Shown here piece by piece: positions 3,171-27,769 of a DNA stretch of 64,000 bases. Numbering within the stretch: position 1 is the first letter of the stretch; every line of letters begins with the position of its first letter. A program made the translations under genes and the position numbers. The DNA is from Escherichia coli. GTDB taxonomy: Bacteria; Pseudomonadota; Gammaproteobacteria; Enterobacterales; Enterobacteriaceae. Below the pieces are notes generated by a model. It made no database searches and was not told the origin of the DNA. It worked only from the letters and a program-made list of their open reading frames with translations. The DNA lies in the NCBI RefSeq assembly GCF_022846255.1, contig NZ_AP025682.1, one strand, 5' to 3'.

Positions 3171-4505
3171 TTACTCTTCTGTCGTTTGCGGTGGCACGCC
3201 CGTTCCGCTCGGTTTACGGCGCTTACCAATATTTTTGGTGTCGCGATGGCGTTTTTTCACCCGCGGCTTATCTTTCTCTTTAGCTTTTTTCTTCTCGGCG
3301 CGTTTAGCCAGTACTTTCTTCGATGGCTTGCCGGTCTGCTTCTCGCTTGGCGCACGCGTTTTCGGGCGTAACTCATCAATTACACGAGCTTTAATTGGCT
3401 CTTCAATATAGCGACCAACTTTGCCCAGCAGCAGATGGTCATGGGCTTCTACCAGCGAAATTGCGGTGCCTTTACGACCGGCGCGCGCGGTACGTCCGAT
3501 ACGGTGCAAATAAGTATCGCCACTGCGCGGCATATCGAAGTTAAAGACGTGGCTGACGTCAGGAATGTCGATACCGCGCGCGGCAACATCGGTTGCAACC
3601 AGTACGTTTACGCGACCTTCGGTCAAACGCTTGATCGCTTCGTTACGCTTGCCCTGTACCATCTCACCTTCGAGATAGCAGTTGTTGATGCCCGCTTCGC
3701 GCAGCCAGTTTGCCAGCTCATGCACACGCTCACGCTTACGCACAAACACAATTGAGCGGGTCGCTTCCGGCTGTTTTAACAGGTGCACCAGCAATGCGGT
3801 TTTATGTTCCAGGTCATCGGCGCGGTAATACCACTGATGAATTTTTTTGCGCTCACGGGTGGACGGATTGGCAGAAACCTCCACCGGATCTTCCAGCAGA
3901 CGCTCGGCAAAGTCCTGAATCGCATCGCCTTCCAGCGTTGCCGAAAAGAGCAGGGTCTGTTTACGCCAGCGCGTTTCGCCAGCAATATGTTCGATATCCT
4001 GAGCGAAGCCCATATCCAGCATACGGTCTGCTTCGTCGAGGATCAGCGTTTCAACCGCGCGGCAATCGAAGTTCTCTTCTTTTATGTATTGCAGCAGACG
4101 TCCGGTCGTGGCGACCACAATGTCCTGGTTTTCGCTGAACACTTCTGCGTGGTTCATATAGGCCACGCCGCCGGTGATGGTGGCGATATCCAGATGCGTA
4201 TGTTTCGCCAGTTCGCGGGCATGATCGGCCACCTGCATCGCCAGCTCGCGAGTTGGGGTGAGGATCAAAATACGCGGCGGACCGGATTTCTTACGTGGGA
4301 AATCGAGCAGGTGCTGCAACGCTGGCAGCAGATACGCCGCCGTTTTACCGGTGCCTGTCGGCGCAGAACCGAGTACATCACGGCCATCGAGCGCAGGCGG
4401 AATGGCGGCAGCCTGAATGGCGGTCGGGCGAGTGAAACCTTTATCCTGGAGGGCTTCCAGCAGGCTTTCGTCGAGTTCAAGTTCGGAAAAAGTCGTTACA
4501 GTCAT
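3171..4505 (-). CDS. srmB: ATP-dependent DEAD-box RNA helicase SrmB
   Basis: 444 aa; APTGTGKT Walker A, DEAD box ([14 protein letters not shown]), basic C-terminal tail. Confidence 0.95.
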
Positions 4506-4636
4506 GTTCTACCTCTGTGTGGGGCGCTGATTATAGACGTTACGGCTGCAATCTTCATCTGTTTGTATGGATATCGCTTCTCGGGTATTGTTCTCACCCG
4601 GTGCTATCGCCGTTTTTCCTGCAAGGTTTTATTTTC

Positions 4637-7005
<2,369 letters not shown>

Positions 7006-21002: not shown

Positions 21003-21920
21003 TTATAATAGTGCTGTTACTATTGCATCTTTAAAAATATTTTCTTCTTCATTTATTAAAGGTGATGACAGATGAATAATTACTTCTTTTCCTGTCAATA
21101 CTATTTGCTCGACTTGAAATCCTGCGTTGTGTAGTCTTTGGCGTAACTTTTCTAGTGCTGATTTTGATATACTAAATCCTTCACTCCTTATAGTATAACT
21201 GGCAACTCCATTTTTAATAATATCTACAGAGTTGTCAATTTCCTGCTGCGAGTAATTTTTCGGTGAGTCGAAAAATCTGGATTTTGTCGTTGCTGTTGCC
21301 CTAAGAGATATCAATAATGATTTGATATCTTTAATCTCAGATGCCAGATACTCAGTTTCTGATACTTCTTTCTGGTCTAGTTGTGCAACTTTGAAAGTGC
21401 CAAAATGTTTGAGGAATGTTGTGTATTCAGGATCAGTTACTGACTTTAAATATGTTTCTTTTATCTTGCTCGCAAGTCTTTCTTTGAATAAATTGATTGA
21501 TTGGTATCTTAAATCCGAAGGGTACTCTAAATGTTCAATTGATGAAATGTCAAAGCTATAAGGAGTGCGCTCGTCCTTAATAATTACGGTCGGTTTGTCA
21601 AATGCGAGACGCATTCCTAATTCAAACATTACATTAGCGTTTCGAGCACTTATATCGCAAACAACTATGGGGTTTTCATAAAGATTTTGAACAATTCGTT
21701 TTTGTATTACTGCAACATCATCATCTGAACTTACCAAATTTGCCTTGAATCCGGCATCATTTGATGCTTCACAAATAATGTCATGAACATTTCTCCAATG
21801 TCCAGTGGGATAACCTTCTATGTCCGCAATTGGCATAATAATGCCGCATATATGAGGTGGCATATTTTTGTTGTCTTTTACATCATCTTGGTTTATTTCT
21901 TTCGTTTGTTGCTTAGCCAT
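21003..21920 (-). CDS. hypothetical cargo protein with N-terminal TIR-like/NDT-like domain
   Basis: 305 aa; motifs ICGIIMPI, PIVVCDIS and RNANVMFELGMRLAFDKPTVII resemble the beta-strand and NV-x-FELG core of the 253-aa protein; AT-rich by eye. Confidence 0.35.
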   Translation of the reverse strand: MAKQQTKEINQDDVKDNKNMPPHICGIIMPIADIEGYPTGHWRNVHDIICEASNDAGFKANLVSSDDDVAVIQKRIVQNLYENPIVVCDISARNANVMFELGMRLAFDKPTVIIKDERTPYSFDISSIEHLEYPSDLRYQSINLFKERLASKIKETYLKSVTDPEYTTFLKHFGTFKVAQLDQKEVSETEYLASEIKDIKSLLISLRATATTKSRFFDSPKNYSQQEIDNSVDIIKNGVASYTIRSEGFSISKSALEKLRQRLHNAGFQVEQIVLTGKEVIIHLSSPLINEEENIFKDAIVTALL

Positions 21921-22649: not shown

Positions 22650-23411
22650 TTACGAGGAAGCGTTAGCTATTTGAGCTTGTGTAAATTCGAAACCAGAATT
22701 TTGTAACCGTTGCACTAGACGAGGAACTGTTTCACGTACATGGTCGTTGAAATTCAGATACAAAATCCCGTTAGCATCAGAAGGCTGTTCTAGGTGCTGT
22801 TTCTGAAGGATTGCTACATTGCTGCGCCCTAAGGACGAAAGAAGCATACCCATCTCGAGTACAACGTTCTGTCTTGCGCGGGGTTGGATTTCTGCTTCAC
22901 CGGCGCGCTTTGAGTATCCCATATCATCAGGTGTCAAAAGAACAATCCCGAAACGGGTAGCAGTTTGTCCTTGCCCAATTTCACGTTCAAGCTCTTCAAT
23001 AATGGTGAGTCCAGTCCCTCCCGTATTCTGCAAAATGAAATGGTCTGGTAATCCAAGTTTATGAAGGATTAGCTCAAGTTGTTCCTTTGCAGTATGGTCA
23101 TGGCCGTGAACAATGAATATCTTTTTGGGAAGCTCAGATGGCTGTTCTACGGCTAGTGGTGTTGCCGTGGGGGGCGTTCCTAAATGGGACATTATTGCAG
23201 TTTCAACATTGGGACGTTCTTGAGGGTTACCTTGAAACTGAATGGTCCGGGTGGTGTAAAGGTTAACAATTACGCCATTCGTTAAACGATAGCAGTCATA
23301 AGTCTCACGCTGTTCGTGGGAAAAATTGGTGAACCCACACTCCCTCAAAAAGTCAGGAAAAGATTCTCTCGGGTATGGATAGGTGATCGGCATTTCAGTT
23401 AGTTCCTGCAT
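22650..23411 (-). CDS. hypothetical cargo protein with C-terminal TIR-like domain
   Basis: 253 aa; KKIFIVHGHDHTAKEQLELILHKLGL and RARQNVVLEMGMLLSSLGRSNVAILQK resemble the COG4271-type TIR-like nucleotide-binding fold (from memory of motifs); unrecognised ~100-aa N-terminal domain. Confidence 0.45.
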   Translation of the reverse strand: MQELTEMPITYPYPRESFPDFLRECGFTNFSHEQRETYDCYRLTNGVIVNLYTTRTIQFQGNPQERPNVETAIMSHLGTPPTATPLAVEQPSELPKKIFIVHGHDHTAKEQLELILHKLGLPDHFILQNTGGTGLTIIEELEREIGQGQTATRFGIVLLTPDDMGYSKRAGEAEIQPRARQNVVLEMGMLLSSLGRSNVAILQKQHLEQPSDANGILYLNFNDHVRETVPRLVQRLQNSGFEFTQAQIANASS

Positions 23412-23475: not shown

Positions 23476-25551
23476 TCAATCTTTTTTGTAGTGGTACGCC
23501 TCAAAGCCGCCAGCGTTCAGCGGAATATCGGGTGCCCATTCGGGGTTAGTGGAGAGAAGCGCGGAAAGCGCTTTATCGTTGAAATCTTCTGTGTCTGGTG
23601 CTTCGGTGATCACCTCGTCGTGTACCGTTAGCACAATGCTGTAACCGGCACCCTCGATCAGCGGCATGTTTCTGGCCAGAACGTCGCGGGCGGCCGCCTG
23701 GGTGACGTTCTCCACCAGCTTTCCGCCGTAGGTTTTGAGTCGTTGCCATTTACGCGAATAAGAGTTAACACCCATGTAGGTGATATTCCCTTGTTCGATA
23801 ACCGGAGACGGGTAGCATACAGCGCGTCCGGATGGTAGCTGTATGCGCAGCCACGCGCCATCACGTCGGATTTTAAGATAGCCGCAATACAATGTTTTTT
23901 GCGGTGTGGCGATTGCTGTGCGGACAGTGCGCTCCAGCTCGTACCAGAAATCGCAGGTCGCCGGGTGCGCCCTGCGCCACAGGCGCTTGAGCGAGTCACA
24001 TGCGATGAATACACGCTCGGACAGGCCAAAGGTCGACTTACGCTTAACCGATTCGTCGTACCAGCTTTTTGCCTCGCGGATAACATCGCGGGGAATGTTT
24101 GGCAGTGCGGCGTTCGCCAGCTCGTCGAGATCGAGACCGTAAACCAGAGCAAAAGTGATGAAAGCCGATACACCACCTCCATAACCCAGACCGAGTTCCA
24201 TGACTTTACCGATCTGACGCATGTGTTTATCAACATCATCTGGTGCAATATCGAAAGCTTTTGCATACGCCAGTTTATATAAGTCCGGACCCGTTCCAGC
24301 GTCATACTCTCTGAATGCATTCAGTTTCCATTCTTCTCCCGCCAGCCATGCCAGCATACGGCCTTCAATGTTTGACAAGTCACTTACCACTAGTTTTTTG
24401 CCTGTTGGCGCGATAATGCAGCCACGTAACGCTGAACTGGTTAGTTCCATGATATTGTCAAACAGCAGGTCTGCACATCCGGCTTTCAGTGCTTCGATGC
24501 CTTCGTCTATTTGTTCCTGTTTTAGTGAAGGGCGGGGAAGGTTCTGGGGCTGGAATAGCCGTCCGGCCCAACGACCGGTACGTGACGCCCCGCAGAACTG
24601 TAGCGTACCGCGTAAGCGCCCGTCGTGGCTTACGCCTTTCATCAGTGCCTTGTATTTACTGGTGCTGGTAGTACTGGCTTGCAGGCGGATAGCCAGCAGT
24701 TCTTTCACGGCAGATGATAAATCGGGGTCGGCCATACGACGTTCCAGGGTACTGCGTTGCATGTCTGGTAGCTCCACACCGTAGGATTCAACGATGTGCT
24801 TAATCAACGCGTCCCGTTGTGTGGCTGCCTGCACTTCGCCATCAGTCATTTCCTGTGTACGCTTTGCTAGGCGCTTTTGCTCCTGGTCTACCGCTTCGAT
24901 CGCAGCGCGCGCGAGTTGCATGTCCATGCAGACGCCCCGGTCGTTGATCTGCTGATCACGATGCCAGAGCGCCAGCTCTGTCCCCTGATAATTCCACTTC
25001 GGCAGACGTTTATAGACTTCGCGCATTGCCTCGATATCCAGTCCGGCGTAAGCAACAAAGCGCCGCCATTCTTCCGGGTGGGTTTTGCTGGTGGCACGGC
25101 GCAGTTTGCTGTTTTTCGGGCGGGGCTTACAGAACAGCTGGATCAGCGCTTTACCTTCTTTGTCCTTCGCTTTGTCTTGCGGGACGCCGAGTATTTCGCA
25201 GAGTTCCCCCAGAGACCCCGGGAGACCGTGCGCCAGCGCCTGCACCATTGTGTCTCGCCAGCGTTTGGCGCTACCTGCAACAACGCATTGGGGAGTGTGC
25301 AGCAATGCATGGCGCAACATGGTGCGATCGAAATGGCTGTTGTGTGCATATATTAGTACGCTCTCATCGCTGAGAGCTGTCAGTAGTCGTGTCGGCAAGT
25401 TATAGTCTGTGGTTAAATCGTGTACGCTGACGGGGTCTTCGTCGATTGCCCATGCGAATAACATGATTTCGACTCCTTCTGCATAGACATGGGTGCCGTT
25501 TTTTATTGGGATTTCGCTGAAAGTTTCGAGGTCTAACCAAAGTTTTTGCAT
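23476..25551 (-). CDS. family A DNA polymerase (PolA-like, exonuclease + polymerase)
   Basis: 691 aa from the first ATG ([13 protein letters not shown]... exonuclease-like); the ORF-track start at 25593 is TTG and lies inside the upstream hairpin. Confidence 0.8.
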
Positions 25552-25580
25552 CAAGTAAGGACCCGTTGGATTTAATAAAT

Positions 25581-25607
25581 AAAAAGCCGCCAAAATGGCG
25601 GCTTTTT
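25581..25607 (-). terminator. rho-independent terminator directly after the SIR2-like gene
   Basis: GCCGCC / GGCGGC stem with a 5-nt loop, flanked by A5 and T5 (bidirectional shape). Confidence 0.6.
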
Positions 25608-25627
25608 ATAACCGAAGTTAAGAATGC

Positions 25628-27130
25628 TTAATATGATAAATAATCATACAAGCATAAAAGTCGCCTGTATTGGGTATCAATTTTATGCCCTGGTTTTGTT
25701 AAATAATCTCGTAGTTGTTTCAATGAAATAGTATCGTTTAGTACGCAATACATAATCGTGTTAGCAACTTTATACTCTTTCGTTTCTTTTAGTATTTCAT
25801 CAATAGACACAGCCTCACTCTTACATGTTTTAATTCGAGAAAGGTTACCAATGATTTTATCTAGCTGCCGTTTTCTGTATGTCTCGGTATTTTCTAGTTC
25901 AGGGCAGATAGAACTAAAAGCGTATATTGGAAAGTGTTCGCTATTAGCTATGGTTTGCTTATTCAGTAATGCGATAAGCTGAGAGTTTGCTTCGTCAACT
26001 ATTTTAAAATAGTTCTGTATCATTTCAGATTTTGTTTGATAAACATATTGTACGGTTCTTTCTGAACCAACAGCAATGACCATTTCATCATTGCGAAGTT
26101 CATCTAAATTTTCTGTAATTTTAACCTTTATCTCACCACCACTTTTGATGGTACTCCAAACTTTTTGAACCTTTCTTATGTCCATTGCGGATACTGGCAA
26201 AACTAGTCCCGAGATGGCATCATATACAGCTTTGTAATTGTTTGTTTTTATTTTGTTTATTCTTATGATAGACATGCCTTCTATATCTATGTCATGCTCC
26301 GTAATTTCAGTTGACATGCTGTCTTTTTCGTATTCAACCAAAAGAAAATTATCTTTTATCCTTTTTGCAAGTTCGGTATTTAAGTCAACGTATGAGAATA
26401 TGGTTTTTAATAAGTACTTAATGTTTTTATCGCTAATACTATACCCTATAAATATGATAGGGTTGTGTATGAATATTGAGAGTAATTGAGCGCGAATTAA
26501 CTCATATTTATTGTCGAAGTTTGCGTAGTCTTCACCTGTGATAATTATGTTGTTAGGATCACTAACACAGCCATGTATTTTGTAAACTGAACCGTATGGG
26601 TTACTTAAAAGAATGTTATTACCAATCAGTGGGTTAAATTCGAAGATGTTCTCTACGAGTTGGTCGTAGTTTGTTGTAATGATGGAGCCTATGTTTTTTC
26701 TTGTTTTTATTAAGCTGTTTATTTCCTCCATCATTGACTCTTTTATCTTTAGGTCTTTAAGTATTGAAGTTAAATAAATTTTGAATCGACTTAGTTTTTT
26801 TCCTTTTTTCATGTGCTCATAGAAAACATCATTGATGTCTTTGAACTTACCGTTACGATCTTCTGCCAGCTTTTTATTAAAAATATCTTCAAGTTTTGTA
26901 GCTAAGATATCATATCGATAGTCGTCACCTTCTAGGCTTTCAGCTTTCAAATCGTAGTAAAACTCAGCATTACCGGTTAGTTCCATTGCGACACTCAAAA
27001 GAAGACCATCCCAGCTAAATGAGTTTTCTAGATACCGTAGGCTAAATCCTGTTCCAATGAATAGAACAGGGTGGTTTTTATAGTGACTTACAAACTCTTG
27101 GATTTCCATACCGATTCTCAAAGTTGACAC
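25628..27130 (-). CDS. SIR2-like domain protein (SIR2_2 / ThsA-type N-terminus, unknown C-terminal domain)
   Basis: 500 aa; LFIGTGFS, ITTNYDQLVE, KIHGCVSDPNNIIITGEDY and PIIFIGYSISDKN align by eye with the ThsA SIR2 motifs; GTG start with AGAGG Shine-Dalgarno (alternative ATG at 27109); AT-rich. Confidence 0.7.
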   Translation of the reverse strand: MSTLRIGMEIQEFVSHYKNHPVLFIGTGFSLRYLENSFSWDGLLLSVAMELTGNAEFYYDLKAESLEGDDYRYDILATKLEDIFNKKLAEDRNGKFKDINDVFYEHMKKGKKLSRFKIYLTSILKDLKIKESMMEEINSLIKTRKNIGSIITTNYDQLVENIFEFNPLIGNNILLSNPYGSVYKIHGCVSDPNNIIITGEDYANFDNKYELIRAQLLSIFIHNPIIFIGYSISDKNIKYLLKTIFSYVDLNTELAKRIKDNFLLVEYEKDSMSTEITEHDIDIEGMSIIRINKIKTNNYKAVYDAISGLVLPVSAMDIRKVQKVWSTIKSGGEIKVKITENLDELRNDEMVIAVGSERTVQYVYQTKSEMIQNYFKIVDEANSQLIALLNKQTIANSEHFPIYAFSSICPELENTETYRKRQLDKIIGNLSRIKTCKSEAVSIDEILKETKEYKVANTIMYCVLNDTISLKQLRDYLTKPGHKIDTQYRRLLCLYDYLSY

Positions 27131-27220
27131 GTAATACCTCTATAAAAACAAATAGCCGTAAAAATTCCAATAGCTTTTTGGATCTCGCCCGGTGTGTAAC
27201 CGGGCGTCTATGAAGAAGGG

Positions 27221-27769
27221 TTAAATCAGTGCTTCAGCATCAGCACCTTCGCTGATATCGTCGAAATCGTCAGCGCTTGCCACTCCGCCGCCAGCGAATG
27301 CATCGCCGTCTCGCAGGAACTGGACTCCGCCGAGTGAGGCATTAATGCGTTTACCGAAATTATTGTCCTGTGCCCAGATATCGATAACGGCGTTTACATA
27401 GCACCCTGCATAGGGACGTCCATCAGCCTGAATTAGTGGCGAACGATCGCGATCAAGAACAGCTGGGCGCGCTTTGTTAGCAGCGTTCAGGAAGAAATTG
27501 CCGGGAAAACCTTCATACTCTGCTTTTTCATCACCATCATGCAGGCACAGATTGAGTTTTTTCTCCAGCTGGTTATAAATGGACTCCCACTTCTCCCCCC
27601 ATTTTTCCTTCGCTACCTGCTTCATAGCTTTACGGATTTCTTCCAGTTGTGGGTGTTTGGGAGACATTAAAAATACTGCGGAGAAACGCGGATCGCCTTC
27701 GCCGTTTACAGTTTTAGCTTCAAACAGAGACGGGAAGGCCAGACGAACATTGTTCAACTTCAGTTTCAT
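27221..27769 (-). CDS. DUF2815-like phage protein (putative ssDNA-binding)
   Basis: 182 aa; MKLKLNNVRLAFPSLFEAK N-terminus typical of this family. Confidence 0.55.
   Translation of the reverse strand: MKLKLNNVRLAFPSLFEAKTVNGEGDPRFSAVFLMSPKHPQLEEIRKAMKQVAKEKWGEKWESIYNQLEKKLNLCLHDGDEKAEYEGFPGNFFLNAANKARPAVLDRDRSPLIQADGRPYAGCYVNAVIDIWAQDNNFGKRINASLGGVQFLRDGDAFAGGGVASADDFDDISEGADAEALI

Follow-up and report, generated by a model that had tools for sequence, protein, structure and literature searches.

Among the described immune systems that contain a SIR2 domain, the one closest by sequence to the SIR2 domain of the protein reported here is type I Thoeris, whose effector ThsA has a SIR2-SLOG architecture (PADLOC E = 4e-18; PDB entries 6lhx, 8bto, and 7uxt). 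The two proteins share their catalytic Asn and His and are similar in length overall. However, the gcADPR-binding C-terminal SLOG (STALD) domain of ThsA is absent from our protein, on which the ThsA profile aligns only over 85–270 of 478, and no adjacent, co-inherited thsB is found, the nearby TIR gene lying 2.2 kb off, across the PolA gene. On the other hand, the defence-associated sirtuins DSR1 and DSR2, whose C-terminus senses phage proteins, are encoded by a single gene with no partner, and combine an N-terminal SIR2 NADase fold with a helical C-terminal region, as the prophage protein does, so they offer the best analogy for how it may work. In contrast to its 500 aa, these proteins are of about 1000–1250 aa, and their MID and alpha-solenoid C-terminal domain (CTD) are absent here, which places the protein outside DSR2 as defined (~1000 aa, with an alpha-solenoid CTD that binds the tail tube protein). 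The PADLOC Dsr1 profile matches weakly and over the SIR2 core only (E = 4e-5), DSR2 chains also match this core only (profile positions 135–239), and the query-normalised Foldseek TM-score to DSR2 (0.35–0.38) is no better than that to isolated SIR2 domains.

Other systems couple SIR2 to a second component. KomC of Kongming, a SIR2-only protein of 264 aa, has KomA and KomB as its partners and contains bound dITP in the solved structures, whereas those partners are absent here; Avs5 carries a STAND NTPase beside its SIR2 domain, whereas our protein has no NTPase domain; and SIR2-HerA (Nezha) and SIR2-pAgo have a HerA ATPase or a short pAgo as neighbour, in contrast to the DUF2815 and PolA genes that flank the prophage gene, and none of the contexts examined had a HerA or Argonaute gene nearby. 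The structures of KomC, BcThsA, Avs5, and FAM118B are helical filaments. The prophage protein is best described as an immune SIR2 with a different C-terminal module, resembling the known single-protein SIR2 systems.

The candidate family PDC-S25 matches the protein over practically its full length (PADLOC profile PDLC04968, E = 4.1e-158, residues 4–500 against profile positions 4–514 of 517), and the prophage gene is a member of it, with nothing that differs. The PDC systems are 145 candidates derived from genes embedded in BREX, DISARM, and type I RM loci (bioRxiv 10.1101/2024.01.29.577857). In addition, the protein matches phrog_2695 (E = 1e-154), a PHROGs entry without function, is labelled "SIR2 family protein" at NCBI, and is 100% identical to an NCBI E. 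coli protein cluster. A homologue with 84% identity, WP_021514374, resides in the P2 gpA/gpQ cargo hotspot and is listed there as a single-gene SIR2_2 arrangement (Rousset 2022, Table S5A). The same work included a P4-hotspot SIR2 (pFR88), cloned under its native promoter, and a panel of eight coliphages plus P2-like phages; the list of additional tested systems is the only one in which this SIR2 appears, and the validated systems do not include it (Rousset 2022). It is 33% identical to the prophage SIR2, over the SIR2 domain. A search of open-access and bioRxiv text retrieved no functional or structural study of the PDC-S25 family, and its only mention there was in a strain inventory. The gene is not an undescribed find, as the family was already present in PADLOC, PHROGs, and Table S5A of Rousset 2022; as a member of a catalogued candidate family, the gene is a reasonable lead rather than a surprise.

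The gene (25628..27130, minus strand) is an intact ORF of 500 aa with a GTG start, within the 64,000-nucleotide stretch of E. coli DNA analysed here (the window). The four SIR2 motifs quoted in the original prediction are all present, at residues 23, 151, 184, and 224. Residues 1–310 (26201..27130, minus strand) form a SIR2 NADase-type domain with GxG at residues 26–28 and with N154 (26669–26671), D156, and H186 (26573–26575) as predicted catalytic residues, thus showing the GxG, the catalytic Asn, and the His of a Rossmann-type SIR2 fold. Pfam SIR2_2 matches residues 149–246 (E = 1e-20), and the PDB sequence matches were to ThsA, KomC, DSR2, FAM118B, and SIR2-HerA proteins, all of them restricted to the SIR2 part. 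N154 aligns with N112 of ThsA, and N154, D156, and H186 are invariant in 119 sequences. The CxxC zinc-ribbon module, of which canonical sirtuin deacylases have two pairs, was sought in the protein and not found. Taken together, the SIR2_2 and PDB matches, the three invariant residues, and the lack of CxxC pairs establish a SIR2 fold of the immune-NADase branch. Our results show that residues 1–310 constitute an NAD-cleaving SIR2 fold of the ThsA/KomC/DSR2/Avs5 branch with its catalytic Asn and His intact, and the SIR2_2/ThsA-like NADase fold that had been predicted is thereby borne out by both the Pfam match and the alignment with ThsA N112.

Beyond the SIR2 domain, a connecting segment (residues 311–365, LPVSAMDIRKVQ...GG..., 26036..26200, minus strand) contains many residues that are invariant in the close family. 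In the structure model, it starts with a helix (residues 315–329) followed by a low-confidence stretch, and the pLDDT in ten-residue blocks over residues 311–360 ranges from 49 to 83, with the lowest values around 330–360, so that this is the least confident part of the protein. It is followed by an all-helical C-terminal domain (residues 366–500, 25631..26035, minus strand), confidently modelled and of unassigned fold family, which includes the most variable stretch in the close family, residues 421–480 (25691–25870). No strands are found in residues 311–500 of the model, of pLDDT 90, and thus the C-terminus cannot be a SLOG domain, as had been anticipated; this agrees with the ThsA profile, which aligns with the SIR2 part only. 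The C-terminal region gave no Pfam or PDB match. The region that matches nothing is therefore real, but it had been put at ~270 aa and measures ~190 aa, as the SIR2 fold reaches approximately residue 310. The C-terminal domain was not found in any other domain architecture, and thus does not have the modular distribution that sensors typically show. Consequently, of the undescribed sensor domain that had been proposed, the unmatched C-terminus stands, whereas the sensor role is conjectural for a domain seen in no other architecture, and the family was already catalogued.

Regarding the start of the protein, the distant homologues begin at a position equivalent to ATG 27109 (M8). However, the N-terminal extension is conserved among the copies that reside in the same genomic slot (see below), as MSTLRIGM in most of them and with variants at two or three positions, and these copies support the start chosen here, as they have an ATG there together with a ribosome-binding stretch rich in purines. 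The gene has a GC content of 0.332 (33.2%) and a GC3 of 32%, compared with 0.538 for PolA, 0.490 for DUF2815, and 48.6% for DUF2800, so the predicted AT-richness relative to the flanking genes was clear (33% against 49–54%). Sampled copies from E. coli, Klebsiella, Vibrio, Aeromonas, and a Firmicutes contig all keep a GC content of 33–37%, whatever that of their host. These data support the view of the gene as foreign, AT-rich cargo inside the replication module of a prophage, and the observation that prompted this analysis holds as a whole.

The window is an E. coli prophage, and the same element adjoins yfhL in strain ECONIH2. Its genes include those for an integrase, an SNF2 helicase, a VRR-NUC protein, PolA, DUF2815, DUF2800, a LexA-like repressor, VapE, a Q antiterminator, and lysis proteins. 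The SIR2 gene lies between two backbone genes of the same strand: upstream, that of the DUF2815/Gp2.5-like ssDNA-binding protein (27221..27769, minus strand; phrog_112, E = 2e-56; RefSeq), and downstream, that of the family A DNA polymerase PolA (23476..25551, minus strand; phrog_17, E = 6e-124; 691 aa in RefSeq). Homology to phage vB_EcoM-606R2 and to the prophage of ETEC H10407 ends at 25533 and restarts at 27187, which delimits an exchangeable cargo cassette at 25534..27186, without homology to the sibling prophages, that takes in the ribosome-binding site and the first 6 codons of PolA. PolA has different N-termini in different cassettes, the point of exchange falling within its first codons, with no direct repeats or transposon ends found flanking the cassette.

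This DUF2815 backbone occurs in 155 complete E. coli genomes. The SIR2 gene was present in 4 of them, one of these copies having an IS1 at its 5' end, whereas a 209-aa hypothetical protein encoded on the opposite strand fills the slot in 67. Other cargoes in the sampled genomes were Nmad5 with a small hypothetical ORF, a 166-aa hypothetical protein, and a BRO-N protein, so that at least four other cargoes occupy the DUF2815/PolA slot. The presence or absence of the gene in related phages, a check that the original prediction had called for, thus identifies it as an accessory gene and not as a core one. In IMG/VR, 13 viral contigs carry SIR2 genes of 68–100% identity in the same slot, the DUF2815 flank falling to 55–59% identity in some of them. 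In addition, Klebsiella prophage remnants near sbcB hold in this slot an intact SIR2 gene of 71% identity, while their DUF2800 and VapE genes are truncated. This arrangement resembles that of lambdoid morons and of the P2 and P4 hotspots, in which an AT-rich foreign gene with its own terminator sits between conserved phage genes and alternates with other cargoes, but differs from them in that the slot is inside the replication module and the swap junction in the first codons of PolA.

The family extends well beyond this slot: clustering at 90% identity gives over 1,731 clusters, distributed among Enterobacteria, Vibrio, Aeromonas, Methylobacter, and Firmicutes, and a library clustered at 50% identity contains 228 representatives that score below E = 1e-30. 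In E. coli, 73 of 5,426 complete genomes have a member. Of 38 viral contigs with relatives, 13 are those with the gene in the PolA slot and 5 have it beside homologues of P2 gpA and/or gpQ (for two of the latter, the evidence is limited). The P2-like prophage that was inspected has its SIR2 gene in the cos-proximal cargo hotspot, encoded in the opposite direction to the replication gene gpA. Other copies were found in an island with type I RM, GmrSD, and nuclease genes, in an ssrA island that also houses an ABC-3C system, beside the gene of a 993-aa reverse transcriptase in Firmicutes, and alone amid housekeeping genes in Vibrio and Aeromonas, whereas more distant relatives are carried by the temperate Firmicutes phages BK5-T, phBC6A51, Javan227, and IPP23. 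No neighbour was conserved across the contexts examined that could act as a partner gene. These distributions show that the SIR2 gene is accessory and horizontally mobile, without need of a conserved neighbour. Moreover, its residence in the P2 hotspot and in restriction-modification islands, together with its membership of PADLOC PDC-S25, makes its guilt-by-association with defence loci strong.

As dN/dS was not computable because synonymous sites were saturated, it was replaced by a comparison against independent codon draws. Between copies whose proteins are 84–88% identical, synonymous sites were as different as such independent draws, and the combination of synonymous saturation with this amino acid identity indicates strong purifying selection.

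From this evidence, the reading that we favour, as somewhat more probable than all its alternatives taken together, is that the protein is a stand-alone, single-protein defence enzyme carried as exchangeable prophage cargo, a predicted NADase triggered by infection that aborts it. The SIR2 enzyme would be kept inactive until another phage infects the lysogen, and the family-specific C-terminal region, especially its variable helical patch at residues 421–480, could then respond to a phage product or to another cue of infection. Such a response would switch on the SIR2 domain, probably through assembly into an oligomer or filament, as in its closest structural relatives; the destruction of NAD+ would then abort the infection, protecting the lysogen population and, with it, the prophage. 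The triggering, the sensing or regulation by the C-terminus, the activation through oligomers or filaments, and the depletion of NAD+ are thus inferred, the activation by analogy with KomC, ThsA, Avs5, and FAM118B. As a candidate for superinfection immunity, the gene had been well chosen in that its fold, its status as cargo, and its presence in defence loci make a defence interpretation reasonable, but the claim is weakened by the 33% identical SIR2 of pFR88, which is not among the validated systems. A more ambitious version, which we put forward tentatively and hold to be rather doubtful, is that the C-terminal region (residues 311–365 and 366–500, with the patch at 421–480) could be a new infection sensor or regulator that directly recognises a phage protein or a cue induced by infection and drives SIR2 filament assembly, in a compact NADase system of ~500 aa present in Proteobacteria and Firmicutes and in at least two unrelated hotspots of temperate phages.

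A first alternative keeps the defensive role and changes the chemistry, so that the enzyme would ADP-ribosylate a protein or nucleic acid of the invader or of the host instead of depleting bulk NAD+. Some proteins with a sirtuin fold are ADP-ribosyltransferases, modification of macromolecules has been proposed for sirtuins of phages or of defence systems (PMC9503650), and NADase activity and ADP-ribosyl transfer are chemistries that sequence cannot separate; even so, we consider this reading unlikely.

The second alternative concerns how the gene is transcribed. Its cassette-specific upstream region (27131..27186, minus strand) contains a ribosome-binding site (GAGGT), the conserved CTATTGGAATTTT, and a weak promoter-like match, TTGGAA-N17-TTTTAT, that would leave almost no leader. 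A sigma-70 scan of 27131–27220 gave nothing at or above 9 of 12 positions, and the alignment of nine slot copies showed conservation of the start region and ribosome-binding site with no clear −35/−10 pair. Just past the DUF2815 stop there is a backbone hairpin (CGCCCGG..CCGGGCG, 27186..27206, minus strand) without a T-run in this copy; a hairpin is found at this place in 9 of 9 aligned copies, with different sequences, and takes the form of a canonical terminator in the Klebsiella-type copies. The latter would imply a promoter in the 60 nt between this terminator and the gene, where the consensus promoter scan of the Klebsiella copy found none. Therefore, given a hairpin that lacks a T-run and the absence of a promoter in these scans, the SIR2 gene may depend on read-through from the early operon and, as this is repressed, stay silent in the lysogen; in other words, it may be transcribed only with that operon, unlike a classic moron, for which an own promoter would be expected.

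These features, a gene inside the early-left operon, on its same strand, with no evident promoter of its own and an upstream hairpin without a T-run, would fit a gene that serves the lytic cycle of the phage rather than the protection of the lysogen, for instance by taking over the host or in counter-defence, and that shares the transcription of the early replication genes. However, close relatives occur outside phages, as chromosomal genes in defence islands or at solitary sites, the gene is dispensable in 151 of 155 sibling prophages, the P2-like prophage carries it in its cos-proximal hotspot in opposite orientation to gpA, and the Klebsiella remnants keep it intact despite their truncated replication genes. 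Thus, a lytic role is improbable, and we return to defence carried as cargo as the preferred explanation.

We assign a similarly low probability to the absence of any anti-phage role, with the protein acting as a regulatory deacylase or the gene being a selfish passenger. The failure of its distant relative pFR88 to appear among validated systems and the IS1 at the 5' end of one copy would fit this; however, the zinc module of deacylase sirtuins is missing, scores are far better against immune NADases, and the protein is strongly conserved in spite of saturated synonymous sites and repeatedly present in defence hotspots. Finally, the gene could encode the effector half of a split, Thoeris-like system receiving its signal from the TIR protein encoded at 22650..23411, 2.2 kb away in the same replication module, as it is ThsA that the SIR2 domain matches best by sequence. 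This very improbable arrangement with the nearby TIR gene was rejected on the absence of SLOG (or Macro) ligand-binding domains from a protein with an all-helical C-terminus and on the independent inheritance of the two genes. The TIR protein is of the CAP12/Pycsar effector type (Pfam; PADLOC PDC-S35), and PolA separates both genes. The TIR allele occurs in 36 E. coli genomes, 0 of them with SIR2, and phage 606R2 has the TIR gene without SIR2, while the Klebsiella copies and 11 of the 13 viral slot copies of SIR2 have no detectable TIR, and solitary SIR2 copies exist elsewhere.

If the preferred reading as an infection-triggered defence enzyme is right, the protein would be among the smallest self-contained SIR2 immune proteins, belonging to an abundant and unusually conserved family whose trigger would add a sensing module to the NAD+-depletion branch of bacterial immunity. 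The DUF2815/PolA junction would then be established as a cargo hotspot comparable to those of P2 and P4 that could be mined for further systems. Prophage genes of this sort affect the host range in phage therapy, for both E. coli and Klebsiella. An inactive protein, on the other hand, would be an ordinary annotated "SIR2 family protein".

At the downstream end of the cassette, a hairpin resembling an intrinsic terminator, with a flanking A-run and T-run (25579..25609), is located 19 nt after the SIR2 stop and ~28 nt before the PolA ATG. Its arms (25579–25592 and 25596–25609) are of 14 nt each and 100% complementary, with a loop of 3 nt, and its folding energy is −20.1 kcal/mol (z = −4.3), with none of 200 shuffled sequences folding as well. 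These two runs give the hairpin the look of a bidirectional terminator. It was missing from the output of the consensus terminator scan, probably because pairing between the A-run and the T-run makes the latter count as part of the stem, and Rfam produced only sub-threshold matches, every one of them driven by this hairpin. The original prediction of a clean hairpin terminator stands as to the perfect 14-bp hairpin with its T-run, but not as to its overlap with the start of PolA: as the orthologous PolA of ECONIH2 has 691 aa (RefSeq), the start of PolA in the window corresponds to ATG 25551, which leaves the hairpin 28–58 nt upstream of the coding sequence, and the overlap arises only in the mechanically extended ORF of PolA that begins at a TTG. 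The Klebsiella copy of the SIR2 gene is also trailed by a hairpin of the same design and different sequence.

One boundary of the exchangeable SIR2 cassette lies inside the neighbouring polymerase gene, with a swap junction at 25534..25551 of the window and at 5978..5998 of L003, the locus representing phage vB_EcoM-606R2 (606R2). The cassette includes the PolA ribosome-binding site and its first six codons or so, and for this reason PolA N-termini differ, the window protein starting with an 11-residue sequence and that of 606R2 with MSNILWGDLETY. Other copies of the slot between the DUF2815 and PolA genes were occupied by different genes: a frameshifted gene of the Nmad5 nucleotide-modification family together with an 89-aa ORF (L016, 3475..4464), a 166-aa hypothetical protein (L017, 3983..4483), a BRO-N protein (L018, 3434..4336), and a 209-aa hypothetical protein encoded on the opposite strand (L002, 8353..8982) and present in 67 genomes, for which a search against PADLOC gave no match.

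Hairpins were found at both ends of the cassette. A strong terminator, bidirectional in appearance, lies within 25551..25609 and precedes the PolA start codon by about 28 nt, and the Klebsiella copy has the same layout, with a terminator before PolA but a different hairpin sequence. This terminator sits within what is expected to be a single early operon; PolA and the downstream replication genes lie beyond it, and antitermination and re-initiation are candidate routes past it. At the other end, the alignment of slot copies (L023–L036 and L004) revealed a hairpin directly 3′ of the DUF2815 stop codon (27186..27206 in the window), detected in all lineages with unrelated stem sequences. The Klebsiella-type hairpins have a T-run and are canonical terminators; in the E. 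coli copy, the T-run is missing.

The GC content of the SIR2 gene was around 33% throughout, both in the window and in the copies at L019, L020, L004, L013, and L008, against a local host GC of 40% to 55%. Among copies sharing 84–88% protein identity, synonymous sites were fully saturated; constraint of this strength is unusual for a gene with a putative role in defence. Four E. coli genomes carry this exact gene, and in one of them (23CRST009, L022), an IS1 element inserted at its 5′ end (4405..5102) cuts it off from its upstream region. A widespread Klebsiella prophage remnant near sbcB/dacD (L004–L007) has truncated DUF2800, DUF2815, and VapE genes and retains, in the same slot, an intact SIR2 gene with a 71%-identical product, a protein for which the assembly collection has 668 indexed blocks. 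This retention looks like domestication of the cargo. Finally, a 55%-identical homologue was found in Firmicutes (Eubacterium/Anaerotruncus; L008–L011, 1720..6126), approximately 1.9 kb downstream of genes for a HATPase_c_4 protein and a reverse transcriptase of 993 aa. The island also contains fragments of serine-recombinase genes and may be a defence island of the DRT type.

The replication module housing the SIR2 gene carries a second cargo gene (22650..23411, minus strand), encoding a 253-aa protein with a TIR domain of the CAP12/Pycsar-effector type (Pfam, E = 4.5e-31) after 96 N-terminal residues of unknown nature. The protein matched the PADLOC phage defence candidate PDC-S35 (E = 1e-108), and its gene was present at ≥99% identity in 36 E. 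coli genomes, as well as in phage 606R2. A third AT-rich cargo gene (21003..21920, minus strand; GC 0.344, GC3 0.26), flanked by those for VRR-NUC and the SNF2 helicase, encodes a 305-aa protein matching phrog_3634, a family of unknown function. Its likeness to TIR and nucleoside 2-deoxyribosyltransferase folds is only faint (PADLOC CBASS TIR effector, E = 1e-6; Pfam, E about 0.2). Sibling prophages have DUF6338 or a cytosine methyltransferase in this VRR-NUC/SNF2 helicase slot instead.
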